From: an uncultured Chloroflexia bacterium
GTDB lineage: Bacteria > Chloroflexota > Anaerolineae > Aggregatilineales > Aggregatilineaceae
DNA length: 64,000 nucleotides
Reading direction: 5' to 3'
Assembly: GCA_963753545.1 (NCBI GenBank)
Contig: CAVWCQ010000008.1
Coordinates: 300,645 to 364,644, forward strand
The stretch's first letter is position 1, and each line of letters opens with the position of its first letter. A program made the position numbers and the translations under genes. This document shows positions 3,893 to 36,748 of this stretch, piece after piece. The notes under the pieces were generated by a model, which was given only the letters and a program-made list of their open reading frames with translations, searched no databases and was not told the DNA's origin.

Positions 3893-3895
3893 TTT

Positions 3896-7806: not shown

Positions 7807-7811
7807 ATTTT

Positions 7812-10590: not shown

Positions 10591-10762
10591 TAGATCATCG
10601 AAAGTCGTGCAATGAACAGTGTTTTCCCCTTCCCCCGCGGCTGCGAAGCAAGCAAGCTGTGGGGGAAGGGTGGCTGAACATGCTTTTCCGTTCAGCCGGG
10701 ATGAGGGCCTGCCCGCGATCCGCAACGCTCATTCATCTCACAAAATTGCATTACTTTCATTG
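10591..10762 (+). repeat. MITE-like structured repeat, copy 1 (~175 bp, imperfect CAATGAA termini)
   Basis: Near-identical to the reverse complement of 36573..36748. Internal hairpins CCCCTTCCCCC...GGGGGAAGGG and GGCTGAAC...GTTCAGCC. The track ORF N-terminus MGEGWLNMLFRSAGMRACPRS... is a translation artefact of this element. Confidence 0.7.
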
Positions 10763-10816
10763 TTTTACTTTTGCGGTGATATTTTGTGTTCTTGTTTTCC
10801 GAACCAGGAAGGCATT

Positions 10817-11741
10817 TATGTCCGTCTACGAGGTCGTAAACCTGACCAAGATATATCCAAAGGCGGCTGTTCCGGCGAACGACGGGATCAATCTGACGGT
10901 CGAAGAGGGCGAAATCTTCGGCCTGCTGGGGGATAACGGCGCAGGCAAAACGACGCTGGTACGGCAGTTGGCGAATCTGCTGGCCCCAACGAGCGGTACG
11001 ATCCGCCTGTTTGGACAGGAACTAACGGCTTCACCCCTCTATTCGCCGGGGCAAATCGGCTATATGCCCCAAAACGGTATGGCTCTCAACAACCTCACGG
11101 TGGGCGAAACGCTCTATTTTACGGCACATTTACGCGGATTGTCCCGGCAGGATGCCCGCGCCGAACGGGATCGCCTGCTCGATCTACTCGACCTGGGCAC
11201 CGTGCGGGATCGCATGGCTCCGCGCATCAGCGGCGGTCAGCGGCGGCTGGCTCTGCTGGCGGCGACGATGGCGGCCTCTCCGTCTGTGCTGCTGCTCGAC
11301 GAACCGACCAACGATCTCGATCCGCAGCACCGCCGCCTCGTCTGGGATGTGGTACGGCAGGCCAACCAGCAGCGCGGCATCACGATTATCCTGGTAACGC
11401 ACAACGTCATCGAAGCGGAACGGGCGATTGGGCGGGTCGGAATTATGCGCGCCGGGCGGCTGATCGCGCTGGGACGTCCGGGAGCACTCAAAGCCGAATT
11501 GAACAAGCAGCTTCGCCTGGAAATTGTGTTTCCGCCGGGCAGCCCGCCCACCTTGCCGGAGGGTGCCGCGCCACGCACCGTCGCGCCAGGGCGCTGGCAG
11601 CTTTTGATCAACCGGGCCGACGCGCCGCTGTACCTGAACGCGCTGAACGGGACCAGCACCGTTGAGGACTTTACCCTGAGCACCGCTACGCTGGAAGATT
11701 TGGTTCTCTCGCTGGCTGAACCGGGAGCCGAAACACGATGA
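10817..11741 (+). CDS. ABC transporter ATP-binding protein
   Basis: Walker A GDNGAGKTT, signature SGGQRR, Walker B LLLDEPTNDLD. The track ORF 5' extension covers a repeat element. Confidence 0.85.
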
Positions 11742-12497
11742 ACCGCCACCACCAACCGTTTGCCGTCCAACTATTGAACCTGACGCTGATCCAGCTTGCC
11801 AACTGGCGCTGGTCGTGGCGGGGAATGTTGATCACGGCAGTTGTCGCGCCCGTGCTGACTACTCTCGGCCTGAGCGCGTTTGTTGCCCACAGTGACACCG
11901 AGACGCTGGCTTACATCCTGTCCGGCAATCTCGTCATGTCGCTGTTGTTCGGCACGCTGAATAATGTGGCGGGGCATTTTTCCTATATGCGCATTGTCGG
12001 ACGTATGGATTTTTTCGCCACGCTGCCCATTTACCGCGTGACTCTGATCATCGCCACCGTGTTCGCTTTTCTGGTTCTGGCTCTGCCATCCACGATCGTT
12101 GAGTCTCATCCTCGGCGCTCTGATCCTGCACCTCGATCTGCACATCAGCCCGCTGATCCTGCTGGTGATTCCCCTGACCGGAATGGCCCTCAGCGCGGTC
12201 GGGGCGATTATCGGGCTGGTGATGCGCACGCCGGAAGAGGTCGGGGCGGTCAGCACGCTGCTCACTTTCCTGCTGGTCGGCTTCGGCCCGGTGCTCGTCC
12301 CGCCGGATCGCCTGCCGGGACCTGTCGAGCAGATCAGTCTGATTTCCCCGGCGACCTATGCCGCGTCTGCCCTGCGCCAGACGCTGCTCGGCATGCCGGA
12401 TCGGATTCCGCTGGGCATCGATCTGATCGTGTTGGCGGCGGTGCTGGCCGGATCGTTGTGGATCGCCGGGATGAAGATGGACTGGCGGCAGAGTTAG
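11738..12497 (+). CDS. ABC-2 type transporter permease with an apparent frameshift near 12100
   Basis: Hydrophobic N-terminal half in one frame and the C-terminal TM half (12099..12497) in another. Start overlaps the ATPase gene stop. Confidence 0.6.
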
Positions 12498-12816
12498 GTT
12501 CGAAGTCAGTTAGAGGGTCTTGTGCTCTTAGAACATCCGTGCTAAAATAGTATTGTGATCACTGTATCCTTTCTCTGCTTTTCTTTTGAGGGTCAGGGCG
12601 TAGGTTAAGAAATGGTTAGGGAGACCCCTCAAAAAATAGTATGCCGAGGATCGCCACGAGAAGAAATGGTCAAGAAGTGATCAACTAGCCAATTTCTTCG
12701 GCTGACTCGGTTCCGGGATTTCTATTAAGATGTTTATGAAAGGCCCGCAAATACAACAAAAATCGAGCCTAAATGATCAAAAAAACCGTCTAGTTGAATT
12801 TTGCAGCCCGTCTTTT

Positions 12817-13722
12817 TTACCCCAACGGCTGAATCAACTCGATCCGGTTGCCGAACGGGTCGCGGCATTCCAGGCGATCAAAGCCGGGAATCGGAATCGA
12901 CTCCAACATCGGCACGCTGTGTTGATCCAGCCATTTTCGCCACGCCGCCAGATCGGTGACCTGATAGGCGAAATGCGCTCGGGTCGCCGCGCGATTGATG
13001 CCATCCTCGACGCCAACATGTACCTGCTGATCGCCCACCGCCAGCCAGAATCCGCCGCGCCCGCCGAGAGAGTCCGGTTTGGGGATTTCCAGCAAGCCGA
13101 GCACCTCGCTGTAAAAACGGCGGGCTTCCGCTTCCGCGCCCACCGGGATCGTTACCATAACATGATTGAGCCGGGTGATCGAGCCGGGCAGTCCGGGGCG
13201 GGGCCGTTCCCAGCCGATCAACCCGTCCGGGCGCAGTCCCAGGCGGCGCATGCCCGCTTTTTCCAACACGCGGATCGAGGCGGCATTACTGGCTAAACAG
13301 TCAGCAGTCACCCGCCTCACGCTCGGCTGGGTGAAGGCCCAGGCAATCAGGCCGCGTGCTGCTTCAGTGGCGTAGCCTTTCCCCTCGTGTTCGGCGCGCA
13401 CCCCGTAGCCAATATCAACCGCGCCGCTGGTGTCAGGACGGCCCTTAAAGCCGATGTCGCCTACAATGCGCGGCTCCTCGCGGCGGACCATCGTCCAGAT
13501 ACCCCAGACCGCCGCCTCCGGATCTTTTTCCACGATCTGGCGGTAGAGCGGCAGATAGTCACGCAGATCGGGCGAGAGCCAGTCCTCCGGCACGTTCGCT
13601 CCCATCCGGGCCGCTGCCTGCCGCGTATCGCTTTGCAGCAGGCTCACCAGTTCGAGCGAGAGGGGAATCAGGACCAGCCGTTCGGTGATCACGCGGTTGG
13701 GGTCAGAGTGGATGAGTCCCAT
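12817..13722 (-). CDS. GNAT N-acetyltransferase fused to a glyoxalase/VOC-family domain
   Basis: N-terminal GNAT motifs (GDIGF...HEGKGYATEA). C-terminal VOC-like repeat (HVMVTIP...FYSEVLGL...HFAYQV). Confidence 0.55.
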   Translation of the reverse strand: MGLIHSDPNRVITERLVLIPLSLELVSLLQSDTRQAAARMGANVPEDWLSPDLRDYLPLYRQIVEKDPEAAVWGIWTMVRREEPRIVGDIGFKGRPDTSGAVDIGYGVRAEHEGKGYATEAARGLIAWAFTQPSVRRVTADCLASNAASIRVLEKAGMRRLGLRPDGLIGWERPRPGLPGSITRLNHVMVTIPVGAEAEARRFYSEVLGLLEIPKPDSLGGRGGFWLAVGDQQVHVGVEDGINRAATRAHFAYQVTDLAAWRKWLDQHSVPMLESIPIPGFDRLECRDPFGNRIELIQPLG

Positions 13723-13947
13723 ACACTGTGCCTTTCAGTTCAGAGTCAGGTTTCAGCGTAAAATTATCGCACACTTATGCACCACATCAACTGTGTTCGA
13801 TTTTATGGTGCCGCCCTGCGATATCGCCATTGGGCCGCTGCGGGGTCGTGCACAATCCCTGATGACCGGCGAGCAGAGGAATGTGATCGGACTTGAGCAT
13901 CACCCCGGTCCATAATGGTATACTAGAGGAGGGGGATTCTTTAGTGC

Positions 13948-15831
13948 TTGACTGGGAACATGTGTATGTCCACTGCGCGCAATGTATCTGAGCCGGCTGC
14001 TCAAATCCTGGACACCATCAGTGATGGTTTTTTTGCGCTGGATGACGATCTGGTGGTGACCTATTTCAATTCTGCCGCTGAGCTGATCTTAGGGCGAAAA
14101 CGCGATGAGGTGCTTGGCCGCCCTCTGTTTGATTCCTTCCCGGAGGCACGCGGGTCAATCTTCGAGGAAAAATATACCTGGGCGCTTCGTGAGCGCCAGT
14201 TTGTCACGTTTGATACCTATTTTGACGTGCCCCCCTATCGCAACTGGTACGAAGTGCGGGTTTACCCGCAGCGGCAGGGCATCGCCGTCTACTTTAAGAC
14301 CGACACCGACCGCAAACTGGCGGCAGAGGCCCTCCGTATGAGCGAGGCGCGCTTCCGGGCAGCGCAGGAACTCTCGCTGGATGCCTTCACCGTGCTGGAA
14401 AGTGTGCGCGATGAGCGAGGAACGATTGTGGACTTTTGCTGGGTCTACGTCAATCCGGCGGCAGGGCATATTCTGCGCCACCCGCCCGAAGAACTCGTCA
14501 ACCAGTGTCTGCTCGCGGTGCTGCCGGGAAGCAAAGAGTTGAGTGATCTCTTTGAGCGTTATGTGCGCGTCGTCGAGACAGGCGAACCTCACGATATTGA
14601 ACTGCATTACGATTCGGAAGGCATCGAGGGCTGGTTCCGCAATATGGCTGTCAAGCTGAATGATGGTCTCGCCGTTTCCTTCAGCGATATCACGGAGCGC
14701 AAGCGCACCGAAAAGCACCTGCGCCTGCTTGAGACGGTAGCCGCGTCCCTTTCGGCGGCTATCACTCCCACCCAGGCGACGGAGATCATTATCACGCAGG
14801 GATTCTCGGCAATCGGCGCGGCGGCGGGCAGCGTGTTCATCCTCCGTGATCCCTACATCTTTGAATTGGTGAAAAGCGTGGGCTATTCGCCTGAATTGGT
14901 TGAATCCTGGAAGCAGATTGACGTGCGCACGGCATCGGCCCCCTTAGCGACAGCGATTCGCAACAAGGCCCCCGTTTTTTTGGGATCGTGGGCGGATCGC
15001 CAGGGAGAGTATGCGCCGGATCAAACCCGCCCGGTGGATACCGTTCACCAGGCGTGGGCCGCGCTCCCGCTGATTGTCAATGAACGGGTGATCGGCGGCA
15101 TTGGCCTCAGTTATACGAAACCCCGTGCTTTTGATGACGAAGAACGCCGTTTTATGACGACGTTGGCTCATCACTGCGCTCAGGCCCTGGAGCGAACGCG
15201 CCTGACCGAACAGGCGAAAGAACTGGCGGCTACTGCCGAACGGCAGCGGCTGGCGCGCGATTTGCACGACGCGGTCAGCCAGGTGCTGTTCTCCTCGACG
15301 ACGATTGCCGAGGCACTTCCTCGCCAATGGGAGCGTGACCCGGAAACCACGTTTGATCTGCTGAAACAGGTGGTCGTGTTCAACCGGGCGGCGATGGCTG
15401 AAATGCGGACGTTGCTGTTTGAACTGCGCCCGGAATCGATCGAACATACCGACCTGGGAACGCTGCTCAATTATCTGGTGGATGCCTCGCGAGGCCGCAA
15501 GCTGATGGAAGCGACTCTGGTTGTGGAAGGGGAACCCTGCCGCCTGCCGCCCGACGTGCACATTGCTCTCTACCGGATTGCGCAGGAGAGCATCAATAAC
15601 ATCCTCAAGCACAGCCAGGCAGCCGCCTGTACGGTCCTCCTGTCGCAGGAGGCGGGCGGTATTGTGCTGTCTGTACGTGACAATGGGCAGGGTTTTGATG
15701 TCGGTAAGTTCTCCGGCGGGCTTGGCCTTAGCATCATGCAGGAACGGGCGGAGGCTATCGGCGCGAAGCTGACGATTGCCAGCCAACCGGGGGGCGGCAC
15801 ACTGGTCCAGGTCCAGTGGCGGCCCGCGTAG
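13948..15831 (+). CDS. PAS/GAF sensor histidine kinase (HisKA_3 / NarX-like)
   Basis: PAS regions, H-box RLARDLHDAVSQ and HATPase_c motifs (RDNGQGFD, GGLGLSIM). Confidence 0.8.
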   Translation: MTGNMCMSTARNVSEPAAQILDTISDGFFALDDDLVVTYFNSAAELILGRKRDEVLGRPLFDSFPEARGSIFEEKYTWALRERQFVTFDTYFDVPPYRNWYEVRVYPQRQGIAVYFKTDTDRKLAAEALRMSEARFRAAQELSLDAFTVLESVRDERGTIVDFCWVYVNPAAGHILRHPPEELVNQCLLAVLPGSKELSDLFERYVRVVETGEPHDIELHYDSEGIEGWFRNMAVKLNDGLAVSFSDITERKRTEKHLRLLETVAASLSAAITPTQATEIIITQGFSAIGAAAGSVFILRDPYIFELVKSVGYSPELVESWKQIDVRTASAPLATAIRNKAPVFLGSWADRQGEYAPDQTRPVDTVHQAWAALPLIVNERVIGGIGLSYTKPRAFDDEERRFMTTLAHHCAQALERTRLTEQAKELAATAERQRLARDLHDAVSQVLFSSTTIAEALPRQWERDPETTFDLLKQVVVFNRAAMAEMRTLLFELRPESIEHTDLGTLLNYLVDASRGRKLMEATLVVEGEPCRLPPDVHIALYRIAQESINNILKHSQAAACTVLLSQEAGGIVLSVRDNGQGFDVGKFSGGLGLSIMQERAEAIGAKLTIASQPGGGTLVQVQWRPA

Positions 15832-15832
15832 G

Positions 15833-16444
15833 CTAGTTTCCTGGTGGCGGGCCAACCACGCTAATGATGCCCGTTACCGGGTTCGCGTCCTGCGTCACCA
15901 CCCAGATAAAATAAACTCCTTTGCTCATATTGGAGAAGGACAGCATATTATTCTCGGCGGCGGTGGGCGTACACCACCACTGGGCATTCATTAAGTCCCA
16001 CAGCATCAGGCTGACTGGCTTGCCACGCTGTTTGGTTGGCACAAACTGAATATCGACTGCACCTGAATCTTCGACCCAGACCAGCCCCAGCGTAGCCTGC
16101 GGGGTTGTATAGCCGCCCAGGCAGCTCCCAGCGGCGTCGATGGCTGTATCCCCACCAGCAACTACATTACTTTCGTAAAAGCTGGGCGAATAGGTCGGAG
16201 CCGCCACATTGATCCCTAACAGCGGATTCACATCAATGCGCAGATCGGCGGCGGAGCCAGCCAACTCGCCGCGAACACTGGAGCCAGGCAGCCCTGACAA
16301 ACCGGGCGGCGCTGACTGTCCCGCCACAGTTGGCGTCGGAGATGGATTGCTCTGGGCGATAGACACAGCAGAAACCGATAAGAGGGCGGCGACAAGAACA
16401 CACAAACAAACAGCGCTCACGATAAGCCTGTTGTACCGCTGCAT
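15833..16444 (-). CDS. secreted hypothetical protein (signal peptide)
   Basis: MQRYNRLIVSAVCLCVLVAALLSVSAVSIAQS signal-like N-terminus. No known domain. Confidence 0.4.
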   Translation of the reverse strand: MQRYNRLIVSAVCLCVLVAALLSVSAVSIAQSNPSPTPTVAGQSAPPGLSGLPGSSVRGELAGSAADLRIDVNPLLGINVAAPTYSPSFYESNVVAGGDTAIDAAGSCLGGYTTPQATLGLVWVEDSGAVDIQFVPTKQRGKPVSLMLWDLMNAQWWCTPTAAENNMLSFSNMSKGVYFIWVVTQDANPVTGIISVVGPPPGN

Positions 16445-17760
16445 AGACGGACTCCTTACTATCCACGTACGGCGGACGTTCTTGAGATTGTGACTACTCC
16501 CCACGCCTAAAGGCGGGGGCTTCTATCGGACCGGGCCGAAGGCTCGTTAGTCCACGAGCCAGAATATTTAAAGCAGCGTTTAAATCGCGGTCTATTCTCA
16601 GGCCGCAGTGAGGACAGTCGTGGATTCGCACACTCAACGCTTTGGGAACAGTCGCGCCACAGCCGGAACACAGTTGCGTCGTGCCTCTGGGGTTGACACG
16701 CAGTACAACACGCCCGGCGCTCTCAGCCTTGTACGTGGAGAACTGCACGAATTGAGCCCAGGCCACATCGGCAATATTGCGGTTGATGACTCGCTTCCTG
16801 TCCGACTGCATATCCTGGATGTCCAGGTCTTCAAACACCATCACCTGATAGGCATCCACCAACTGGCGCGACGCCTGATGAGCAAAGTTCGTTCGTCTGT
16901 TCGCCGCACGGCGATAGGCATGATTGAGCGCGCGCAGGACGCGGCGTCGCGCCGGGCTGTCGGTGGCATACCGTTCTTTTTGGCGCTGCAAGCGGGCAAT
17001 ATCCGCCGCGTCCTGTTTCATCCAGCGCTGGCGCTTGATCTGACCCCCGTCCGACAGGGTGGCGAACGTCTTCAATCCGAGGTCAATGCCCACCACGTGA
17101 TCGACCAGCGGCAGCGGTTCGGCTGTCGACGGCACACGACAAGCAGGCAGACCAGTTGCCGACCGTATCGCGGCGGATGGTGACCGTTTTAATGGTTCCT
17201 TCAACCGGACGGTGCACTTTCACCCGCACCTGACCGATTTTGGACAGCAAGAGCCGTTCGCCGTCCAGCCGAACGCCGTTCCCATACTGGGGATAGGTGA
17301 CGCTGTCGTACCACCCGCGCCCCTTAAAACGGGGGTAGCCCGCCGTCTCCCCCGCTTTGACGCGGCGGAAGAAAGCTTGAAAAGCGAGGTCAACACGCTT
17401 GCATGCCTCTTGCAGACTTTGCGAAAAGGCGTGGTTGAGGAAGGGTTGTTCGGTTTTCCAACCCGGGATCAGGTTGATGGTATCAAAACAGCTAAGGGTT
17501 TCGTGGTTCATCTCCCAGGCCTCGCGGCGTACCTCCAGGGTCGTGTTGTACACCCAGCGACAGGCGTCCAACGCGCGCAGCAAAGCACTCCGCTGGGCCG
17601 CCGTGGGCAGCAGTCGATACTTGAAAGTCCGGGTAAGCATCAGCCCTCCCAACAGCACCCCCCACCGAAACTTGCGTCTTGCTGAGGTACGTCCAGGCGG
17701 TAGGGTGCGCTGGACGCAAGCAGACCCTTCCTATCCTACCTCATCTTTCTTTCCGATTAC
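16440..17760 (-). mobile_element. IS1341/ISC-type element carrying only tnpB
   Basis: tnpB without tnpA. Ends are approximate and no clear terminal hairpins were verified by eye. Confidence 0.45.
16494..17658 (-). CDS. tnpB: IS200/IS605-family TnpB (OrfB) RNA-guided nuclease with an apparent frameshift near 17150
   Basis: N-terminal OrfB_IS605 region (17083..17658). C-terminal RuvC-like plus zinc-finger region (CSGCG...CPHCG) in a different frame (16494..17204). Confidence 0.8.
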
Positions 17761-17940
17761 AAAAGGCACGCCTTCTATCCTCACCGCTAAAGCGGGAGGT
17801 TTTACGGCGCTTTCTCGATAAGATGCGGGCCTTTTTCATGGGACTTCTCCTTGCATCAGTGGGTTTCTAGATTTTTTTATTGCCAGGGGAGGCCCCCTGC
17901 ACAATATCTTTGGCGGAGGAGTTGTAGAGATGCTTCTGTA

Positions 17941-17990
17941 CAAGAGAAAAGCGAAAAACAGATTTCACCGCGGAGAAAAGCAAAAGCGAG
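17941..17990 (+). repeat. REP1 copy
   Basis: CAAGAGAAAAGCGAAAAACAGATTTCACCGCGGAGAAAAGCAAAAGCGAG. Confidence 0.7.
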
Positions 17991-18145
17991 CGATCCATCG
18001 GATCGTCATTCAGATCGGAGTTTACACCTTTCCGCAAGGGGAGAGTCAAGGGGCTTAGAGGTTACGAGTGACACTTGTAAGTAATTTGACATACCCTAAA
18101 ATAATGATTGTTATTCGCGCACATCTCACAACCGGGGGGACACCA

Positions 18146-18826: not shown

Positions 18827-18904
18827 GCGATTTTTCGGCTCAAAACTCAGATGAAAAGAGGGCGGGACTGTTTACCCGCCCTCCTGATATTCCAGGGGCT
18901 ATCG

Positions 18905-19921: not shown

Positions 19922-19928
19922 GGCAACG

Positions 19929-20390: not shown

Positions 20391-20455
20391 AAGCCTGGCT
20401 CGGGGCCGGAATGTGATGCTAATCCTAACCGCGATAACCTTAATCTGTCCAATTC

Positions 20456-22234: not shown

Positions 22235-22285
22235 CCGATTGCCCCCTCAGTTCCCATCTCGCCATTGATGGTACTGGTCGCGAAA

Positions 22286-22741: not shown

Positions 22742-22798
22742 GTTTCGATAAGACTAACGGAATTATACACCAACAACGATCAACGCATGATCAAAAAG

Positions 22799-24341: not shown

Positions 24342-24486
24342 TCCCTCAGATAGACGCATAAAAACAGTGTAGCGGGAACGAAAGTTATCCGCTGGGCGCT
24401 TGCCTGCCGCCTGCCTGATTTTGCTGCTGAGAATAAAGCACGGATGTGCTACAATTGGGGGCATCCGAGCAAAGAGAGAGCGATGT

Positions 24487-26383
24487 ATGAGCGACTATAT
24501 ACCCAGCGCACATATCCAGGACATCTTACAAAACCTTCCGGCGTCACCCGGCGTGTACCAGATGATCGATCCCAACGGCATGATCATCTACGTGGGCAAG
24601 GCGAAGAGCCTGCGCAACCGCGTGCGGAGCTACTTCCAGCCGAGCAACTATGACTCGAAAGTGCTGCGGCTGCGGGCCGAAGTGGCCGATATCCAGTTTT
24701 TGCTGACCGGGGATGAACTGAAGGCGCTGATCACCGAAGCGGAGTTGATTCGCGTCCACAAGCCGCGCTTCAACATTCTGCTGAAGGATGACAAACATTA
24801 CCCGTATATCCGCGTGCGGACGGGCGATCCGTTCCCAACGGTTGAAATGACGCGGCGTTTGGAACGCGGCGACGGTCACCGCTACTTTGGGCCGTTCACC
24901 TCGGCGGGGGGTGTGCGCGAGACGCTGGATGTGCTGCGCAAGGCGTTCCCCTATCTGACCTGTGATCGCGAGATCACCGGGAAGGATGCTCGCGCCTGCC
25001 TCTATTACGATATCAAACTGTGCGGCGCGCCGTGCATCGGGGCGCAAACGCGCGATGAATACTGGGCCGGGATTACCGGGCTGATGCGCGTGCTGGCGGG
25101 CCATGCCGACGAGGTGCTGGCGGATCTGCGTGGGGCGATGGAAGCCGCTTCGGAAAATCTGGACTTTGAGAAGGCGGCGCTGCTGCGGGATCGGATTCGC
25201 GTCGTGGCGCAGATTTCGGCCCGGCAGCGGTTGGTGCGCTGATTTTGAAGCGAACCAGGACGTGATCGCCTTCGCGCAGGAGGGCAGCGACGCCGTCGTG
25301 CAGATGTTCCTGATCCGCAATGGCAGACTGGTTGGCAGCGAATATTTCGCCCTGTCCGGCGCGGAAGACGAAACCGCCGACGAGATTATCGAACACTTCC
25401 TGACGCAGTTTTACCAGGAGGCCACCGACATCCCGCCGGAAGTGGTCGTGCCGAACGATCTGATCGAGACGAAGATCATCGAGCAGTGGCTGCGGGATCG
25501 GCGCGGCGGCAAAAAGGTCAAACTGGTCGTGCCCCAGCGCGGCAACAAGCGCGAACTGGTCCAGTTAGCGGCTCAGACTGCCTCGGAGAAACTGAATATT
25601 CTGCGGGCGCAGTGGGCCAGCGATACCGTCAAACAGGAAGCCGCGCTGAGCGAAATCCAGGAGGCGCTCAGTCTGCCGACGCCGCCCAACCGGATCGAGT
25701 GCTACGACATCAGCACGACGCAGGGCACGGCGATTGTCGCCAGCCGGGTTGTGTTTGTGCAGGGTGTGCCCAAAAAGGGCGAATACCGCCGCTTCAACAT
25801 CCAGACGGTGGCTCACGAAGGATCGGACGATTACCAGTCGATGCGGGAGGCGCTGACGCGGCGTTTCCGGCGCTATACGGATGCGGTCAACGCCGAACAG
25901 GCCCCACTGCCGCCCGGCAAAGAGGATCACGAGGAAACGTGGCGGGTGCTGCCTGATCTGCTCATTGTGGACGGCGGCAAGGGGCAGTTGGGCGTGGCGG
26001 TGGAAGTGCTGCAAAGTTTCGATCTGTTTGGGCGCGTACCTGTGTGCGGCCTCGCCAAACAGTTCGAGGAACTCTACCTGCCCAACGATCCCAAACCCGT
26101 TATTCTGCCGCGCCGCAGCGAGGGGTTGTTCCTGCTGCAACGGGTGCGGGACGAGGCGCACCGCTTCGCGATCACGGCCCATCGTGCCCGCCGCGCCAAA
26201 GCAGGACTTGCCAGCCAACTGGAACAGGTACCCGGCATCGGCCCGGCCCGGCGCAAAGCCCTGCTGAGGGCATTCAACAAGGATATCGAAGCGATTCGCG
26301 CCGCCAGCATCGACCAATTGATCACCGTGCCGGGTATCACGCGGGAGATCGCGGAGAATATCAAGGCGACATTGGGGGGCTAG
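24487..26383 (+). CDS. uvrC: excinuclease ABC subunit C with an apparent frameshift near 25238
   Basis: GIY-YIG N-terminus (GVYQMIDPNGMIIYVGKAKSLRNRV). UvrC C-terminal RNase H-like and HhH regions are in the second frame (25103..26383). Confidence 0.85.
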
Positions 26384-26654
26384 CGGCCCTCGTGGAGAAG
26401 GATTTTTCAAACAGAAGCGGGGCACCCAGTAGGTTGGGTGCCCCGCAGCCAATTGTTATTGCGCTAAACAGGTGATGGAACTGATGAGCCACTCCCCGTT
26501 CCCGCGTTCCAGTGTGAGAGTCGCCAGATCAACCGGGGTGTCACTGCCTGGGAATGTCCCCTGCATCACAACTTCTCCCGGATTTGCGCCGGGAAGAGTC
26601 GTCACCACTTCGGGTTGGTCCTGGGCACACAGCAGCAAATCGCCCAACTGGGTG

Positions 26655-27599: not shown

Positions 27600-27716
27600 A
27601 GGTTTTCCCTCCTGATCAGTGATTGTAGCGTTTAAGGCAACTATGCCGAATCAAAATTCCTTTTTCGTATGTTTCTCTTATGGGAATAAACGGAGGATGT
27701 GAAATAATAGGGGATA

Positions 27717-29311: not shown

Positions 29312-29597
29312 AATAATCTAATTGGCTCGAAAATGTAACAAAAGTGCCCATTTTGGCCCGTTCTGATCCATTACGGGCCATTTTTGATCATTTAGTGGTT
29401 TCCAATTAGCCGGAAATTCTTATAAGTTACTCACTTCCGGGCCATTTCTTCTCGTGGCGATCTGCGTACCCCCCTAAAAAACGGCACGGTGACTAACCGT
29501 TTCCTAACCTTGTTCTCGCCTGGAAAGAACAAATGCCGTTTCAGCCGGAGGCGCAAAAACCGCACAACGCGATTTTCCGAGGAGCTATCCTTGTTTA

Positions 29598-29678
29598 CAG
29601 GATAGCACAGATTTTCCCTAAAATACTCCCTTAAGGTTGAACCTTAAGTACGAATTTGGAGATGGACGTCTTTGAAAT
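29598..29678 (+). repeat. left copy of a ~85-bp inverted repeat (partner at 30630..30712)
   Basis: ACAGGATAGCACA...AATACTCCCTTAAGGTTGAACCTTAAGTAC...TTTGGAGATGGACGTCTTTGAAAT matches the reverse complement of 30630..30712 with few mismatches. Confidence 0.7.
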
Positions 29679-29697
29679 TACCTTCGCTGACCGTCCT

Positions 29698-29892
29698 CTA
29701 GTAGACCTTATATTCCGGATGCATGCCGTCGAACCGCTCGCGTCGAACATCGCCCAGTTCCTGGTCAAACCGCCGGAGATATTCGCCCAGAGGTTCCTTC
29801 TCAAGTTTTGCTTTTCGCATCGCGATCAGAAGCTCTTTAACCAGGATCTCCAACTCGTTTACATGTTTTTGGGAAACGGTTTCAAGGTTCAT
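29698..29892 (-). CDS. small hypothetical protein (64 aa). Coding strand is ambiguous, because a fully overlapping plus-strand ORF 29656..29895 starts inside the left inverted repeat.
   Basis: Charged helical peptide. Lies between the csp terminator and the left IR. Confidence 0.2.
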   Translation of the reverse strand: MNLETVSQKHVNELEILVKELLIAMRKAKLEKEPLGEYLRRFDQELGDVRRERFDGMHPEYKVY

Positions 29893-29935
29893 TGATCCCT
29901 ACCTTTTCTGGTTTACTCACAAGCACTCGTCGAAC

Positions 29936-29977
29936 TGCAAAAAAGAAAAATGCCCTGGATCAAATTGATGCAGGGCA
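29936..29977 (-). terminator. intrinsic terminator of csp
   Basis: Hairpin GCCCTGCATCAATTTGATCCAGGGC followed by a T-tract on the minus strand, ~35 nt after the csp stop. Confidence 0.65.
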
Positions 29978-30008
29978 TCGATGCTAGCTTGCGCTGCAGG
30001 CTGCGCGT

Positions 30009-30227
30009 TTAGTTGTTCGCGCGCATCACGTTGGTGGCCTGGGGACCTTTTTGGCCCTGAGTGACGATGAAAGTAACCCGCTCGCCCTCAGCCAGTTCAC
30101 GGTAGCCATCACCCTGGATTTCGCTGTGATGCACGAATACATCCGGGCCGCCTTCGCGTTCGATGAATCCAAAGCCCTTCTGGGCGTTAAACCACTTCAC
30201 AGTACCGCTCGTACGTTCTTCAGTCAT
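30009..30227 (-). CDS. csp: cold-shock protein (CspA family)
   Basis: [40 protein letters not shown]1/RNP2 motifs. 72 aa. Confidence 0.9.
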
Positions 30228-30629
30228 TTGGAAAATTCCTTTCCCACTAAAATTGGCTTGATGTCGTGGGAATGGAGTCACTTGGGGATAAAAAATACAG
30301 CGCGTTGATTGAGTTGCGCTGGAATTTGATACCACTTGTGCAAACAACCTTTTCCACCACAAACACTATTATACATCATATCTTCTAAACCGTCGAATTT
30401 ATGTGTTAGTGAAGCGTTTCTCACACGCCTCATATCTCAAGACTTTCATTCGTGTTTTAGTGTTGCTGACGGAAAATCAGGCACGACCACGCCGCAGATA
30501 GCCCCTATCCCCGACCCTTTCCCCGTGCATGCTGCGCGGCTTAGCTGCGCACGCATGCGTGGAGAAAGGGAGACGCGTTCCTCTCTCCACGCAGTGGGGA
30601 GAGGTTAGGAGAGGGGCCGCTTTTGATCA

Positions 30630-30712
30630 TTTTAAAGACGTCCATCTCCAAAATAGTACTTAAGGTTCAACTTTAAAGGAGTATTGTTCGTCGAACATTT
30701 GTGCTATACTGG
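30630..30712 (-). promoter_or_regulatory. right inverted-repeat copy. Probable csp promoter and 5' leader start.
   Basis: Lies ~400 nt upstream of csp on the minus strand. Cold-shock genes carry long 5' UTRs. Sequence identical in inverted orientation to 29598..29678. Confidence 0.45.
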
Positions 30713-31109
30713 TTGTAGGCTCGTGCTGTCCTTTCTGCCAGCGTCCCTCATGTAAGAACGCCGATCCGGTAGAGAAGCGGTTAGAAAACAGTTTGGGGAC
30801 ATGCCAAAAAATTATGATTTTGAAGATCGCTACGCGGAGAAGTGATCAACTAATTTTTTGCAAAAGTTAGAATTTGCAAAAAGGGGCTTTGTAGTACATA
30901 TACTTATAGGGAACCGCGCAAACTTCTGTTATTTCATCGTTTACCTGTTACGCTCCCAAGTTAGGGGGCCGACAGGTGAATGTCAGGTGGATTTCAGGCA
31001 AACGTCTTGAGTTTTTTCCAGAGCGAGCTACTATTGACTTCTAAAGACCCTGTGTTACAGGGTATAGTTGGCCGCTCAAAACAGAGGCCACAAAAAGGAG
31101 TGGGCTGCT

Positions 31110-32891
31110 ATGCCTATTGTTGGAGTAGTCGCATTAGGAGTTATCGTCGCGCTGCTGGTGCTGATCTTCATCGCGCCGCGCGTTCTGCTCGGCCTGGTGA
31201 TCATCAATGAGCGGCAGGTCGGCATTGTGATTAAGAAATTCTCACGGCACTCACTGCCCCCCGGACAACTGATCGCCCTGAACGGTGAAGCAGGCTACCA
31301 GGCTGATACGCTGGCCCCTGGCTGGCATCTGTGGAAATGGCCCTGGGTTTACCAGATCATTAAATCGTCGGTGGTGGTTGTGCCACAGGGTGAAATTGCG
31401 CTGCTGGTCGCGGCAAGCGGGTCAGCAATCCCACCGGAACGCATCCTGGCTCGCGTGGTTCCCTGCGATGACTACCAGGACGCGCGCCAGTTTTTGATCA
31501 AAGGCGGAGAAAAAGGTCGCCAGCTTGGCATCCTGACGGCGGGTACCTACCGCATCAACCTGGCGCTGTTCACGGTGATCACGGCGGCGACTGCTGAACA
31601 GCACGGCATGCAGCCGGAACAACTGCTCGTGCAGCGCGTCGCGCCGGATCGGGTCGGAATCGTGACGACGCTCGACGGCCAGCCCATCGAGACGGGCGAG
31701 ATCGCCGGGCCGGAGATTCCGCACCATGATAATTTCCAGAACGCGCAGAACTTCATCGCGGCGAGCGGGCGGCGCGGCTTGCAGGAACAGGTGCTGCTGT
31801 CTGGCTCGTGGAACCTCAACCCCTGGTTTGTCCAGGTGGAACAGGTCCCGATGACGGAAATCCCCATTGGTTATGTCGGCGTGGTGATCTCGTATGTCGG
31901 CAAGGCGCACGAAGATATCAGCGGCGCAGACTTCAAACACGGCGATCTGGTCAATCCCGGCCACAAGGGTGTGTGGGGCACGCCGCTGTTTCCCGGCAGG
32001 CACCCGCTGAACGTGCACGTGATGAAAACGGAACTGGTTCCCACGACCAACATCGTGTTGAACTGGTCGGGGCGCACTGAGGCGCATCAGTACGATCAGC
32101 AGTTATCTTCGGTCACGGTCCGGTCGCGGGACGGGTTCGCCTTTAACCTGGACGTGGCGCAGATCATCCACGTCGCCGCGCTGGACGCTCCTAAAGTGAT
32201 ATCGCGCGTTGGCTCGATGCAGAATCTGGTTGATCATGTTTTGCAGCCGATTGTGGGCAACTACTTCCGCAACGCGGCGCAGACGTATACCGTGCTTGAC
32301 TTTTTGAGCGCCCGCAGCGAGCGCCAGACGGAAGCAGCGCAGCACATCCGCACGGCGATTGGACTGTACGACGTGCAGGCGATTGATACGCTGATTGGCG
32401 ATATCTTCCCGCCAGACGCGCTGATGGCGACGCTGACCGACCGTAAGATCGCGGAGGAACAGCGCAAAACCTACGAGGTCCAGCAGGACGCGCAAACGCA
32501 GCGGCAGTTACTGGTCCGCGAGACAGCACTGGCGGATATCCAGCAGCAGGTGGTCAAGGCGGAACAGGGCGTGAGCATCGCCTCGCTGGAAGCCGACGCA
32601 CGGGTCAAGCAGGCGGGCGGCGAGTCCGAGGCGATCCGGGTGACAGGCTCGGCGCGGGCGGAAACGTATCGCCTGGGGGCGGAAGCGCTCGGTTCGCGGG
32701 ACTATACGGCGCTGCAACTGATGCAGTTGATCGGGGAAAATCAGGTCCGCATTACGCCCGATGTCGCAGTCAGCAGCGGCGCGGCGGGCGGTCTGGGGAT
32801 GATCGAAGCGCTGATCGGCGTCAATTTGCAGGAGCAGGTGGCAAACGGCAAGAAGACTCCCAAGAAGGCCGATGGGGCGGCGGAGAGCTAA
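31110..32891 (+). CDS. flotillin-like SPFH-domain protein
   Basis: N-terminal TM helix, SPFH domain, long C-terminal coiled-coil/Ala-Glu-rich region. Confidence 0.7.
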   Translation: MPIVGVVALGVIVALLVLIFIAPRVLLGLVIINERQVGIVIKKFSRHSLPPGQLIALNGEAGYQADTLAPGWHLWKWPWVYQIIKSSVVVVPQGEIALLVAASGSAIPPERILARVVPCDDYQDARQFLIKGGEKGRQLGILTAGTYRINLALFTVITAATAEQHGMQPEQLLVQRVAPDRVGIVTTLDGQPIETGEIAGPEIPHHDNFQNAQNFIAASGRRGLQEQVLLSGSWNLNPWFVQVEQVPMTEIPIGYVGVVISYVGKAHEDISGADFKHGDLVNPGHKGVWGTPLFPGRHPLNVHVMKTELVPTTNIVLNWSGRTEAHQYDQQLSSVTVRSRDGFAFNLDVAQIIHVAALDAPKVISRVGSMQNLVDHVLQPIVGNYFRNAAQTYTVLDFLSARSERQTEAAQHIRTAIGLYDVQAIDTLIGDIFPPDALMATLTDRKIAEEQRKTYEVQQDAQTQRQLLVRETALADIQQQVVKAEQGVSIASLEADARVKQAGGESEAIRVTGSARAETYRLGAEALGSRDYTALQLMQLIGENQVRITPDVAVSSGAAGGLGMIEALIGVNLQEQVANGKKTPKKADGAAES

Positions 32892-32957
32892 GACAGCTAA
32901 CCAAACACAAAAATAAGCCCGCTGAAGGAATGCCCTTCCAGCGGGCTTTTTCTTTCA

Positions 32958-33509
32958 CTATTCACTCCAGATGCCTGCAATCTTTTTTACAATGAAATAA
33001 CGGAATACTGGGCCAGCAATCCAGGCGGCAGGTATAAGTGCGATTAACGTGTGCCAGGGACTTCCTGGTAGGTCAGCTATGTGTCGAATCCGGTAGGGGA
33101 TAATGATTGGCAGGAATAGCAGGAGCAGGTAAATCAAGCTGGTAGCATTGTCACCTGCTGGTGTACTTACGGGCACTTCGCGCTGTGCCGCTGGGACATA
33201 CTGCTCCTCAGCATTGCTGCCAGCCCACCAGTAAGCTGATTTTGGTTTATCCGAACCCTCTAGCGCTTTTATCAGCCAGCCGCCCAGGTAGGTCACAATG
33301 ATCGAGAAACCTGCCCCCATTAACACGGCTGTCCAATCTGTTTCTTTAAAAAAGGGCCAGAAGGTCAGGATTGCCAGTCCGATCAGAAGAACAATTCCGA
33401 CTTTTTTTGAAGCAGCAGCGCCAGCCTTGTGATTTGTTAGGGCTATTATGAGGGTGACACCTACAAGACTGACGCCTATCCACGGTAGAGAGCTGATTTG
33501 CTCGTCCAT
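32958..33509 (-). CDS. hypothetical integral membrane protein
   Basis: Several hydrophobic helices. No known motif. Confidence 0.4.
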   Translation of the reverse strand: MDEQISSLPWIGVSLVGVTLIIALTNHKAGAAASKKVGIVLLIGLAILTFWPFFKETDWTAVLMGAGFSIIVTYLGGWLIKALEGSDKPKSAYWWAGSNAEEQYVPAAQREVPVSTPAGDNATSLIYLLLLFLPIIIPYRIRHIADLPGSPWHTLIALIPAAWIAGPVFRYFIVKKIAGIWSE

Positions 33510-33964
33510 GATATCCCCCTATGTGGCTTTGCTCAGACTTACGGATGAAGCATACCGAACATGGGGTGTTCTGCCAACTGGATCCGATCACAAACACAGC
33601 GAGGGGCGACTTCAAGCGATCTATGCCGCCTGAGTCGCCCCTCTTTATTTGAGCTGCGATATTGGCCTCCTTCCCTAGATGCTAGGGTATTGGGACCTCG
33701 TAATCACAGCTAATGGCACCCAGCACTGCCGCTGCTTACTCAGCAACTCATTTGCCTTCGCAGCACCGGATTCCGCTACCTGTTATAAAAGATGATAAAC
33801 CAGGGGCGTATTATTTGGCTAGTTAATAAAGGAGAGGTTGGCTATAGATTTCATCAACTTACTTAACTAAACATAAAAATTCCACCTCAAGGTCCCTGAT
33901 GTGCTGAACATAATCAACTGCGGTAAGCTTTAAGGAGACCAGGACACACATTCAGGAGGCGACG

Positions 33965-34960
33965 GTGAACGTTCGTTGGGGCGTTTTGGGCACAGGGCGA
34001 CATGCCGCGAATACGGTTATTCCGGCGATCCAGGCATCGGAACATGGCGAAGTCGTGGCGATAGCCAGCCGGAACGGGGCGCGGGCACAGGAGTTTGCTC
34101 GTGATCTGGGCATAACGACCAGCTACGACAGTTACGAGGCGCTGCTGGCGGATCCAAACGTGGATATCATTTACAATCCGCTGCCGAATCACCTGCACAA
34201 GGAATGGTCGATCAAAGCGGCGCAGGCAGGCAAGCATGTGCTGTGTGAAAAGCCCATCGCACTCAACGCGGCGGAAGCGGTTGAGATGGTGGCAACGTTC
34301 CGCGCTGCCGGGTTGAAACTGGCCGAGGCGTTCCAGTGGCGGCATCACCCGCAGGGGTTACGGATGCGCGAATTGATGCTGTCCGGGGCGATCGGTGAGC
34401 CGCGTTTGATCGACGCCGGATTTAGCTTTATGCTGGACCGGCCCGACGACGTGCGCTGGGTGCCGGAATATGGCGGCGGCGCGCTCTATGATGTCGGCTG
34501 CTACCCCATCTCGTTCGCGCGGTTCATCATGGGCATGGAGCCAGCCAGCGTTACGGCGCAGATTTACTGGAATGCGTCGGGCGTTGATGATCTGGTCGTG
34601 GCGACGCTGGAATTTCCGAACGGCGTGCTGGCGCATATCAACTGCTCGTTCATTCTGCCGCTGCGCCGCTACACCGAGGTGATCGGCTCGACGGGCGGGC
34701 TGTATGCCAACAAGACGTACAATCCGCGCGGGAAGGGTGAGACGATCCTGCGCACGGAGTTGGATCGGGATGTGGTCGAGACGATCCCGCTGCCGCAGGT
34801 CGATTTATATGTGCTGATGGCTGAGGATTTTAACAAGGCCGTGATGGAGAACAGTCCGACGGTCTACCCGGCAGAAGATGCCGTCGCCAATATGCAGGTG
34901 ATCGATGCGATTTTCCGCGCCGGGCGGGAAGGTCGGCGCGTGGACGTGGGGACAGTGTAA
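33965..34960 (+). CDS. Gfo/Idh/MocA-family NAD(P)-dependent oxidoreductase
   Basis: Rossmann N-terminus (VRWGVLGTGRHA), conserved EKP motif, C-terminal Gfo/Idh/MocA domain. Confidence 0.8.
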   Translation: MNVRWGVLGTGRHAANTVIPAIQASEHGEVVAIASRNGARAQEFARDLGITTSYDSYEALLADPNVDIIYNPLPNHLHKEWSIKAAQAGKHVLCEKPIALNAAEAVEMVATFRAAGLKLAEAFQWRHHPQGLRMRELMLSGAIGEPRLIDAGFSFMLDRPDDVRWVPEYGGGALYDVGCYPISFARFIMGMEPASVTAQIYWNASGVDDLVVATLEFPNGVLAHINCSFILPLRRYTEVIGSTGGLYANKTYNPRGKGETILRTELDRDVVETIPLPQVDLYVLMAEDFNKAVMENSPTVYPAEDAVANMQVIDAIFRAGREGRRVDVGTV

Positions 34961-34965
34961 GACCG

Positions 34966-35007
34966 GGCGCGACGGCTTAGCTTCGCACGCTTGCAGCGCC
35001 CGTACAA
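34966..35007 (+). repeat. REP2 hairpin-CTACAA-type element
   Basis: GCGCGACGGCTTAGCTTCGCACGCTTGCAGCGCCCGTACAAC. Confidence 0.55.
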
Positions 35008-35035
35008 CTTTTGTTGCCTACAAGAACGAGGACGC

Positions 35036-36450
35036 ATGACGGATACACAATCGACTTCCGATCCGCTGGATGGGCAGCATGTGGTCGTGCTGGGATTCGC
35101 ACGGCAGGGCAAGGCACTCGCCCGCTGGCTGCCTACCATTGGCGCGCAGGTGACGGTCTCGGATACACGAAGCACGGCGGCGCTGGCCTCAGAACTGGGC
35201 GAATTTGCCGGGCTTCCTGTCCAGTTCGCGCTGGGCGGGCACCCGCTGGAACTTTTGGACGGCTGCGATCTACTCTGTGTGAGCGGGGGCGTTCCGCTGA
35301 CGCTGCCGATCATCCAGGAGGCGTTCCAACGCGGGATTCCGGTGACCAATGACGCGCAGTTATTCCTGGAACGCTGTCCCGCGCCTGTACTGGGCATCAC
35401 CGGGAGCGCGGGCAAAACGACAACCACAACGCTAGTCGGGGCGATGTGCCGGGCATCCGGGCGGCGGACGTTTGTCGGTGGCAATATTGGCGATGTGCTG
35501 CTCGACATGCTGCCGCAGATCGGCGGGCAGGATATCGTCGTCATGGAACTGAGCAGCTTCCAGTTGGAACTGATGACGGTCAGCCCGGATGTATGCGCCG
35601 TGTTGAATGTGACGCCGAATCACCTGGATCGACATGGCACGATGGATGCCTACAGCGCGGCGAAGGCCCAGATTTATCTGCACCAGACGCCGAGCGACGT
35701 GGCGATCTTTGGCTATGATGATCCCGTTGCTGAGCGGATGAGTCATGAAGCGCCGGGCGAGTCGCCTATTTTTCGCTGCATTCCGCTGTGCCGTCGGGCG
35801 CATATCTCAAGGGGCAGGAACTCGTCGTGGTGGGCGATAGTTCGCCAGGGGCGGAGTGGCGGACGATCTGCCCCCGGGATGAAATCCGGCTGCGAGGCGA
35901 GCACAACGTGGCGAATGTGTTAGCCGCTTGCGCTGTCGCCGGGGCGGGGAGCATCTCACCGGAAGCGATGCGCCGCGCGATAGGTTCCTTTACGGGAGTC
36001 GAGCACCGCCAGGAACTGGTGGCAACGATCAACGGCGTGACATGGGTGAATGACAGCATCGCCACCGCGCCGGAGCGAGTCGTTGCTGCGCTACGCAGTT
36101 ACAGCGAACCGCAGGTGCTGCTGGTCGGCGGGCGCGACAAAAACCTGCCCTGGGAGGAGATGGCCGATCTGGCTGTGACCCGCTGCCGGGCGGTGATCGG
36201 GTTTGGCGAATATGGGGCCAGGGCTATCGAGCATATCGAACAGGCGAGGGAGCGGGCGGCGGGATCGATGGTGGAGCAGGTGCATGTGGTGGATACGCTG
36301 GACGAGGCCGTGCAGCAGGCTTCTGCAATCGCCCAGCCCGGCGACGTGGTGCTGCTCAGCCCAGGCGGAACGTCGTATGATGCGTACCAGGATTTCGCGG
36401 CGCGGGGGCAGCATTTCCGGGATCTGGTGCACGGGCTGGCAGCCGGGTAA
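35036..36450 (+). CDS. murD: UDP-N-acetylmuramoylalanine--D-glutamate ligase with an apparent frameshift near 35780
   Basis: N-terminal GKxVVVLGxxRQG, Mur ligase GITGSAGKTTTT. The C-terminal domain continues in the second frame (35788..36450). Confidence 0.8.
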
Positions 36451-36568
36451 AGAAAAGCAAGAGAAATAAAAGAAAAAGCAGATTTCACCGCGGAGAGCGC
36501 GGAGGGCGCGGAGAAAAGCAAGAGAAGTAAAAGAAAAAGCAGATTTCAGCGCGGAGAGCGCGGAAGTA
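36450..36568 (+). repeat. two tandem REP1 copies after murD
   Basis: AAAGCAAGAGAAATAAAAGAAAAAGCAGATTTCACCGCGGAGAGCGCGGAGGGCGCGGAG followed by AAAAGCAAGAGAAGTAAAAGAAAAAGCAGATTTCAGCGCGGAGAGCGCGGAAG. Confidence 0.75.
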
Positions 36569-36572
36569 GGAC

Positions 36573-36748
36573 AATGAAAGTAATGCAATTTTGTGAGATG
36601 AATGAGCGTTGCGGATCGCGGGCAGGCCCTCATCCCGGCTGAACGGAAAAGCATGTTCAGCCACCCTTCCCCCACAGCTTGGCTTGCTTCGCAAGCACGC
36701 GGGGGGAAGGGGAAAACACTGTTCATTGCACGACTTTCGATGATCTAC
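36573..36748 (-). repeat. MITE-like structured repeat, copy 2 (inverted relative to copy 1)
   Basis: Reverse complement of 10591..10762. Produces the same artefactual peptide (track ORF 36091..36726). Confidence 0.7.

Follow-up and report, generated by a model that had tools for sequence, protein, structure and literature searches.

Two near-identical copies of a structured repeat were analyzed in a 64,000-nt stretch of DNA from an uncultured Chloroflexia bacterium of the family Aggregatilineaceae (contig CAVWCQ010000008.1), and this whole stretch is called the window below. The two copies, named copy A (copy 1, on the 10591 side) and copy B (copy 2, on the 36565 side), are probably recent copies of an ~180-bp non-autonomous repeat, similar to miniature inverted-repeat transposable elements (MITEs) or REPINs, which inserts into the 9-mers of another extragenic repeat, REP1, with a 4-bp duplication, and which is mobilized in trans. 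An initial annotation of the window had proposed either a non-autonomous, MITE-like mobile element or a structured noncoding RNA repeat. The first of these proposals is supported by the sharp ends of the element, its 24-nt terminal inverted repeat (TIR), the lack of coding capacity, a TTTG direct repeat around copy A and the fact that both copies cut REP1 at the same phase.

Copies A and B are near-identical and have sharp boundaries

Copy A spans positions 10591..10769 of the plus strand (179 nt, TAGATC...TTTTACT), with limits taken from the in-silico excision which restores REP1, and copy B, its reverse complement, spans 36565..36747 of the minus strand (183 nt). The copies are ~26 kb apart and in opposite orientations. 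A global alignment of A(+) with B(-) showed that 177 of the 179 alignable bases match, with two substitutions and four single-base insertions or deletions (indels), which confirmed the near-identical reverse-complement pair described earlier. The substitutions are adjacent (TT/CC) and located 4–5 nt before the right end, and all four indels fall in the apex of hairpin 1. In a repeat search of the window the pair appeared as two blocks, one of 53 nt with 98% complementarity and one of 123 nt with 97%. The window contains a 26-mer of the element exactly twice, which was not seen in any of 100 shuffles, and the nhmmer E-values of the two copies were 1e-67 and 6e-65. The homology between A and B is lost or becomes sharply lower at both ends, with the right boundary located ~7 nt further out than initially annotated. 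Both copies are non-coding and, at 179 and 183 nt, within the size of a MITE (< ~300 bp); the six-frame peptides of the element gave 0 matches among 5.8 billion proteins.

The single-base differences in this window have to be treated cautiously. The conserved genes murD, uvrC and tnpB, as well as that of an ATP-binding cassette (ABC) transporter permease, are split by frameshifts, and three of them are seen as overlapping open reading frames (ORFs) in different frames (murD at 34991-36450, the ABC permease at 11738-12550 and uvrC at 24460-26383). Indel errors of a long-read assembly are probably the likeliest cause of these frameshifts, and the four indels that separate A from B may hence be artefacts.

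Both copies interrupt a REP1 repeat at the same phase

REP1 is a unit of ~61 nt, which consists of TTGCTTTTCTC, one to three 9-mers CTCTYYGCG, the sequence GTGAAAT and a T-rich tail. The window has REP1 sequences at 64-125, 2507-2559, 3851-3899, 6674-6727, 7774-7818, 17949-17978, 36467-36564, 39720-39774 and 44729-44781. A profile built from nine copies in the window detected 11 instances there, ~0.5 kb in total. Copy A is located between the two halves of such a unit. The 5′ half lies at 10550..10590 (+), where the profile match (10565-10590) ends exactly at the insertion point, and the 3′ half, CGGTGATATTTTGTGTTCTTGTTTT, lies at 10774..10800 (+). The sequence TTTG is present on the plus strand both to the left (10587..10590) and to the right (10770..10773) of the copy. 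When 183 nt, corresponding to the 179-nt insert and one TTTG, were excised in silico, the intact sequence GCGTTCTTTG|CGGTGATATTTTG was restored, the REP1 profile score was 23.6 bits instead of 12.5, and the match covered model positions 9-43 instead of 9-34. Because five pairs of cuts, from 10586/10770 to 10590/10774, yield the identical restored REP1, copy A is flanked by a 4-nt direct repeat, as would be left by a perfect duplication of 4 bp of the target.

On the 3′ side of copy B there is a REP1 array (36452..36564, minus strand), which begins right after the murD stop codon and contains one full unit and a second unit, whose first 9-mer is cut by B; on the 5′ side there is a REP1 fragment, TTCTCCGCAGTGATATTTGCCTTTCTCTG, at 36748..36781 (-). 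Excision of copy B with TCTG/TCCG as the flanking tetranucleotides yields TTTGCCTTTCTCTG|CGCTCTCCGCGCTGAAAT. This product looks like an ordinary REP1 unit containing two 9-mers, similar to that at 44742, and a 4-bp duplication may have been produced at this site as well. In both copies the REP1 9-mer is cut at the same phase, TTCTYYG^CG, even though copy A is located in the last 9-mer before GGTGA and copy B in the first 9-mer of its unit. The initial annotation correctly placed both copies at REP1, but in each case a REP1 unit is interrupted, rather than merely abutted, by the element. Of the putative target-site duplications, which had been suggested as a check, that of copy A is perfect (TTTG/TTTG) and accompanied by the restoration of REP1, while at copy B three of the four positions agree. 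As REP1 makes up only ~0.5 kb of the window, two chance landings inside it are unlikely; a rough estimate, with REP1 at ~5–6% of intergenic DNA, puts two independent chance landings at well under 1%.

The 24-nt TIR encloses a REP-like core, composed of a pyrimidine/purine hairpin, a second hairpin and GGGATGAGGG. The data are consistent with a mechanism in which a transposase encoded elsewhere in the genome would recognize the ends of the element. Insertion would occur into the 9-nt units CTCTYYGCG of REP1, with the cut after TYYG and the duplication of those 4 bp. The decayed versions of the core found elsewhere in the window would be older.

Several observations weigh against transposition as the route of copying. 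Only two full-length copies are known, both in the 64-kb window. The direct repeat of copy B is imperfect (3/4, TCTG/TCCG), and upon excision of this copy the REP1 score increases by only 1.5–4 bits, from 22.6 to 24.1–26.7. A 4-bp repeat taken alone is weak evidence, because the flanks consist of T-rich, periodic, low-complexity 9-mers. None of the relatives fetched has the element at either locus, and no precise empty site was found in them, their protein identity being 73–92% and their local gene content differing. The window contains no transposase with matching ends. Finally, homology of low identity continues past the right end of the element, because the right arm is homologous to the tail which joins module D, a diverged relative located directly upstream of copy A, to REP1. 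Such homology would also be expected from recombination between pre-existing REP1-associated modules.

The last point leads to the main rival explanation, in which ectopic recombination or gene conversion homogenized an ~180-bp tract between two pre-existing modules associated with REP1, with no dedicated transposase. The core and tail are an older unit which normally precedes REP1, as where REP1 follows module D, and the tail aligns with the right arm of both copies. Beyond the right end the copies are homologous at the level of identity typical for REP1, YYTACTTYYGCG, and the known number of two copies and the imperfect repeat at copy B also agree with conversion. On the other hand, the 35-nt left arm, which has no further occurrence in the window or the loci, is 100% identical between A and B, and at its abrupt end the two copies face parts of REP1 that are not homologous to each other. 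The clean splitting of REP1 by copy A with a perfect 4-bp repeat is not expected for a conversion tract, and neither is conversion favored by the different REP1 contexts of the two copies. Hence, we consider conversion unlikely and transposition by an enzyme acting in trans the probable origin of the two copies.

The REP1 repeat itself is not restricted to the window. An exact scan with the REP1 core GCGCTCTYYGCGGTGAAAT gave, among the matches listed, over 120 contigs of JGI metagenomes, which represent many habitats. The homology of REP1 continues in the 5′ direction in the form of CTCTGCGNN units of 9 nt; in many cases these have an inverted partner, with which they form a long palindrome (loci L008-L127). 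The REP1 profile found no instance in 128 kb from the closest relatives, and REP1 gave no match in Rfam. We know of no name for this family. The window also contains classical GC-rich repetitive extragenic palindromic (REP) hairpins headed by GTAG, such as GTAGGGCGGGTTTGCTAACCCGCCC, at 3816-3840 (+), ~39790-39850 (-) and ~46385-46405. REP1 is often located ~20 nt 3′ of such GTAG-headed hairpins, which suggests the existence of composite "hairpin + REP1" units.

The element has a terminal inverted repeat and strong internal hairpins

In the plus strand of copy A, the fold has three hairpins and a closing stem, with a free energy of -83.2 to -84.4 kcal/mol (z = -8.0 at -84.4). The closing stem is formed by the left arm (10590..10613, plus strand, GTAGATCATCGAAAGTCGTGCAAT) and the right arm (10745..10768, plus strand, ATTGCATTACTTTCATTGTTTTAC), which pair with each other in the minimum-energy fold. 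The left arm is present in A and B only and has no other occurrence in the window or in 840 kb of fetched loci. The stem corresponds to a 24-nt imperfect TIR with 18 Watson–Crick pairs and 2 of the G-T type. The energy of the duplex, -19.4 kcal/mol as compared to -9.6 ± 2.7 for shuffled arms, was equalled by 1 of 500 shuffles, while the ungapped score was equalled by 64 of 5000. Hence, the short TIR CAATGAA of the initial annotation does belong to a terminal repeat, but that sequence is too short to describe the 24-nt stem. The element opens with GTAG, and copy B closes with CTAC; the 24-nt arm which follows GTAG is A/T-rich and not self-complementary.

The hairpin region begins 35 nt from the left end and stops 30 nt from the right end. 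Hairpin 1 (10626..10671, plus strand) has a pyrimidine arm CCCCTTCCCCC, a purine arm GGGGGAAGGG and a variable apex with GCGAAGC. Hairpin 2 (10672..10697, or through 10707 with the conserved GGGATGAGGG, plus strand) is formed by GGCTGAAC...GTTCAGCC. The strong internal hairpins noticed earlier are therefore real features of the fold of copy A. The opposite strand of copy A folds more weakly (-70.7 kcal/mol), while the two strands of copy B fold almost equally (-77.1 versus -75.0 kcal/mol). Since the asymmetry seen in copy A is nearly gone in copy B, the strand bias is not robust. A switch between the hairpin and a G-quadruplex formed by four G-tracts is no more than speculation, as folding with quadruplexes enabled never preferred the quadruplex over the hairpin.

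The core belongs to a wider family of hairpin modules

Three diverged relatives of the core are present in the window. Module D (10446..10572, plus strand; nhmmer match 10466-10558, E = 2.4e-5, model positions 77-169) is a relative of the core and tail, and extends into the 5′ half of the REP1 cut by copy A. Module C (56309..56410, minus strand; nhmmer E = 2.3e-7) lies directly after the stop codon of a ribonucleotide reductase gene and is antisense to it. Modules C and D have the same architecture, which consists of a pyrimidine/purine hairpin, a second hairpin and the sequence GGGRTGAGG. The weak relative module E (30492..30592, minus strand) contains hairpin 1 and GGGGATAGGGG and lacks hairpin 2; it passes a regular-expression census, and its nhmmer match (~30573-30514, minus strand) has an E-value of only 0.61. 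The tail GCCCGCGAYCCRCAACG...ATTGC is common to D and A.

The comparison of A with D showed that hairpin 2 has eight pairs, of which three are changed on both sides (G-C to T-A, G-C to C-G and A-T to G-C) and none is broken, while in module C two pairs are broken. This covariation comes from three distinct sequences only (A, C and D). Neither the closing stem nor hairpin 3 is retained in C or D, and the stem and left arm are absent from C, D and E. Thus, the conservation of structure, which had been put forward as a check, holds for hairpin 2 between A and D, but does not hold fully in C and does not extend to the closing stem or hairpin 3.

A simpler module, CCCCTCTCC-loop-GGAGAGGGG-N3-GGGGTGAGG, is found in Aggregatilinea lenta beside the orthologous MarR gene. 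Modules of the type "CCCTCTCC hairpin + GGGGTGAGG(G)" were observed at L134 ~9269 (minus strand; A. lenta), L012 ~1694, L044 ~4973, L061 ~5512, L096 ~10203 and L017 ~1013. The module of L096 has two hairpins, and the modules outside A. lenta are in unrelated metagenome contigs. The four G-tracts of the simple module fit the G-quadruplex consensus, and folding favors the hairpin. Hence, the core of the element belongs to this older and wider family of hairpin repeats. The 180-bp unit with arms is young and has so far been seen only in the source organism.

Further copies were searched for in collections which did not include the source genome. An exact 20-mer scan of GTDB species representatives gave a single planctomycete match, which proved to be due to chance upon alignment, and there were 0 matches in the exact 20-mer scan of JGI metagenomes and in the 26-mer scan of IMG/VR. 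No match was found by blastn against PLSDB (plasmids) and INPHARED (phages). Searches with nhmmer and blastn-short, using the whole element and each arm, found none outside the window in the 840 kb of fetched loci, of which 128 kb belong to the closest relatives. A literature search on the motif strings returned unrelated or 16S rRNA matches only.

The compensatory changes in hairpin 2 bear on the possibility that A and B are paralogous genes for trans-acting structured small RNAs of ~180 nt, with a closing stem and three hairpins. The very stable fold of the plus strand of copy A (-84.4 kcal/mol, z = -8.0), its G-U pairs which favor this strand, the conservation of the single-stranded motif GGGRTGAGG and the compensatory changes across the diverged relatives are in agreement with such genes. 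However, the same compensatory changes are predicted by DNA hairpins of REP-type repeats, and the asymmetry between strands is almost lost in copy B (-77.1 versus -75.0 kcal/mol). Moreover, the closing stem and left arm are missing from C, D and E, and no homologues were found in the relatives or collections searched. The comparison with Rfam 15 gave 0 matches at the gathering score for the whole window, and noise only for the region of copy A at E up to 10. Scans for sigma-70 promoters and intrinsic terminators at A and B found nothing common to both. On this evidence a pair of small RNA genes is improbable, and the earlier description of a structured noncoding RNA repeat, which finds no support in Rfam, in a common promoter or terminator, or in the strand bias of copy B, was not upheld.

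Gene context of the copies

At the locus of copy A, the window contains a PD40 gene, module D, REP1 and copy A between the MarR gene and the gene of an ABC ATPase. The PD40/WD40 beta-propeller gene (9208-10383) has a paralog at 59890-60960. Copy A is in the sense orientation to the ABC ATPase gene and ends 48 nt before its start codon at 10818. In five relatives the MarR and ABC ATPase genes are divergent, and they are direct neighbors in most of them, with a NUDIX gene in between in one. The spacer between MarR and ABC ATPase is ~170–180 bp in most relatives, including A. lenta, and the element is absent from it; it is absent from the orthologous ABC operons of all five. The best relative of the ABC ATPase is 80% identical, and that of A. 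lenta is 73% identical; a protein exactly equal to the ABC ATPase of the window was not on record. Searches with this protein and FtsW assign the window to the family Aggregatilineaceae of the Anaerolineae.

The order of features around copy B is murD, two REP1 units, copy B, ~95 bp, the remnant of a gene similar to GNAT, a gene for a small membrane protein and ftsW. Hence, the earlier placement of this copy between murD and ftsW is right on the murD side, but on the other side the remnant and the membrane-protein gene precede ftsW. The remnant of the GNAT-like acetyltransferase gene (36849..36911, plus strand) consists of the last 20 codons and the stop codon, and 16 of the 20 encoded residues were identical in a tblastn comparison (E = 2e-8) to L002, a 3-kb Logan contig. 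This contig carries the closest relative of FtsW, with 92% identity, while the next ones, from metagenome-assembled genomes, have ~75–80%. In L002 the last 99 codons of a GNAT-like gene at the contig edge precede a 64-aa membrane-protein gene and ftsW. Because L002 has the GNAT-like gene and the window only its last 20 codons, the murD-ftsW spacer has clearly been remodelled, and the remnant marks a deletion in it. The possibility that A and B are the ends of a 26-kb composite element or of an inversion was rejected, since the synteny of murD-ftsW and of mraW-uvrC-WD40-GFO-murD across copy B is as in relatives.

Copy B is antisense to the direction of murD and ftsW, and its own strand leads into REP1 and the end of murD, with no gene downstream. 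Each of the modules C and D follows a stop codon, in antisense orientation in one case and in sense orientation in the other. These orientations do not support the earlier description of the element as inserted in operon leaders, which would agree with copy A alone. They also bear on a cis-regulatory leader, such as a riboswitch or an attenuator, of the downstream ABC transporter and cell-division genes. The sense orientation of copy A and its distance of 48 nt from the ABC ATPase start codon are what such a leader would show, but the orthologous ABC operons of the five relatives lack the element, C and D follow stop codons, and there is no match in Rfam. The orientation relative to neighboring genes varies among A, B, C and D, which, together with the lack of a common promoter or terminator and of an Rfam match, argues against a leader or riboswitch and gives no support to an RNA gene. 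A leader function is highly improbable, and in our judgment it is effectively refuted by the orientation of copy B.

If transcribed, either strand of the element would be strongly folded (~-70 to -84 kcal/mol), and an effect on the host is probably a by-product. By analogy to REP and ERIC sequences, the element could block exonucleases or attenuate read-through in the PD40-ABC and murD-ftsW spacers. Such very stable hairpins, one of them within the cell-division cluster, could in this way alter mRNA stability or read-through.

Comparison with known repeats and mobile elements

The MITEs Correia/NEMIS of Neisseria, ERIC/IRU of enterobacteria and RUP of Streptococcus pneumoniae (review PMC3184786) are, like A and B, 100–200 bp long, non-coding and intergenic. 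Similarly, pairing of their TIRs gives one long imperfect hairpin over the entire unit, and their insertion is accompanied by a short target duplication, as is probable for copy A. Co-transcription with neighboring genes in either orientation and mobilization in trans would, by analogy, be further features in common. In contrast, these MITEs have no sequence similarity to A and B and occur in tens to hundreds of copies, while two copies of the element were seen. Also different are the interior of A and B, which itself belongs to a REP-like hairpin family, and their target, which is another repeat, REP1, and not a simple TA or similar site.

Similarity was also observed to REP sequences and REPINs, which are mobilized by the RAYT tyrosine transposases (PMC3116915, PMC2817692, PMC3733652). 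These are intergenic hairpin repeats with co-varying arms, and the GTAG start of A and B and the CTAC end of B resemble them, as does the pair of inverted arms around a spacer, which recalls a head-to-head REP dimer. GTAG-tagged REPs have been reported for Chloroflexi (PMC3733652). However, the arms of A and B are 24 nt long, A/T-rich and non-palindromic, while a REP is a GC-rich, GTAG-tagged palindrome of 20–40 nt, and the spacer of ~130 nt is much longer than in REPINs and structured. Furthermore, the HUH/Y1 enzymes are not expected to give a target duplication, and no RAYT gene was found in the window. Copies A and B thus lack the classical REP palindrome, as GTAG is present but the adjoining 24-nt arm is A/T-rich and not self-complementary. 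A PATE derived from IS200/IS605 has hairpins in subterminal position and neither TIRs nor a target duplication, and it inserts 3′ of a fixed tetra- or pentanucleotide; the element does not agree with this, in view of the TIRs, the 4-bp direct repeat of copy A and the location of the hairpins 35 and 30 nt from the ends; the fixed left flank TYTG is compatible with a PATE, but it is not diagnostic.

Insertion sequences which target REP sequences include IS1397 and those of the IS110/IS1111 group. ISPpu9 of Pseudomonas putida (PMC8450116) is similar to A and B in having a fixed insertion position inside a short abundant extragenic repeat. The difference is that the insertion sequences which target REPs are autonomous and encode their own transposase or recombinase, whereas A and B are non-coding.

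The RAYT-like TIRYT genes are described in PMC3733652 as flanked by inverted repeats with the motif GGGGWSAS, which can be single, dimeric or clustered. The widespread module "hairpin + GGGGTGAGG" (D, A. lenta L134, L012, L044, L061 and L096) fits this motif, and so does GGGGTGAG, a match which, for an 8-nt degenerate motif taken alone, is a lead only. Copies A and B and module C differ in carrying GGGATGAGG / GGGATGAG, and GGGATGAGG does not fit the first four Gs of the published motif. No tyrosine transposase was found beside any hairpin module. It seems rather improbable that the hairpin or hairpins with the single-stranded GGGRTGAGG are the recognition module of a single-strand DNA (HUH/tyrosine) transposase system, spread across phyla and related to the TIRYT GGGGWSAS repeats, with A and B as a REPIN-like composite moved specifically into the 9-nt units of REP1. 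If this were true, it would reveal a two-layer repeat ecology in Chloroflexi, in which one family parasitizes another, and which has not been described before.

Candidate enzymes in the window

Mobile DNA and repeats are plentiful in this genome, and in the window they are represented by TnpB, a DDE_5 insertion sequence, the GTAG-headed REP hairpins and REP1. The tnpB gene (15833-17204, minus strand), which is the one of the frameshift-split genes not located above, encodes OrfB_IS605 and Cas12f1-like TNB domains; it has no TnpA beside it, and its stop codon abuts that of a convergent histidine kinase gene. TnpB was rejected as a partner of the element, because there is no TnpA beside it and no repeat in common with A or B. 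The IS701-like DDE_5 insertion sequence (~44823-46296, ~1.47 kb), with a transposase gene at 45241-46269 on the minus strand, was rejected as a parent, because its inverted repeats of ~28 bp are unrelated to the ends of A and B. This insertion sequence is located in the cell-division cluster after murB, directly beside a REP1 copy. No Y1_Tnp (RAYT-type) domain was detected among the 47 window ORFs scanned with Pfam, and phmmer with an IS200 TnpA query, which is a weak test, matched 0 of 6075 six-frame ORFs. The window thus offers no transposase whose ends match those of the element, and the enzyme, if any, would be encoded elsewhere.

Significance and further repeats

The element is of an ordinary kind, found in a poorly sampled lineage of Chloroflexi, and is no surprise to specialists; it has no bearing on any long-standing open question. 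If the proposed origin by transposition is true, A and B are a clean case of a miniature mobile element landing in another extragenic repeat, in Aggregatilineaceae (Anaerolineae), whose mobile DNA is almost unstudied. The more interesting by-products are that one repeat family specifically targets another, and that the REP1 core and the "hairpin + GGGGTGAGG" module occur so widely across habitats. In practical terms, such elements break short-read assemblies, and contig L002 ends in a T-rich stretch which matches the REP1 3′ flank of copy A. They also create spurious ORFs, such as the call of a 360-aa extended ABC ATPase from position 10659.

Two further repeats were observed in the window. 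A 1064-bp unit at 29622-30685 resembles a small mobile cassette with cargo. It is bounded by 57-bp inverted repeats (91% complementary) and contains module E and, on the minus strand, a gene for a cold-shock protein (PF00313, 30012-30362). Another repeat family, GATCGCCACGAGAAGAAATGG...GAAGTGATCAACT, is present at 12649-12686, 29425-29462 and ~30830-30850; all three copies are intergenic, and two of them flank the cold-shock cassette.

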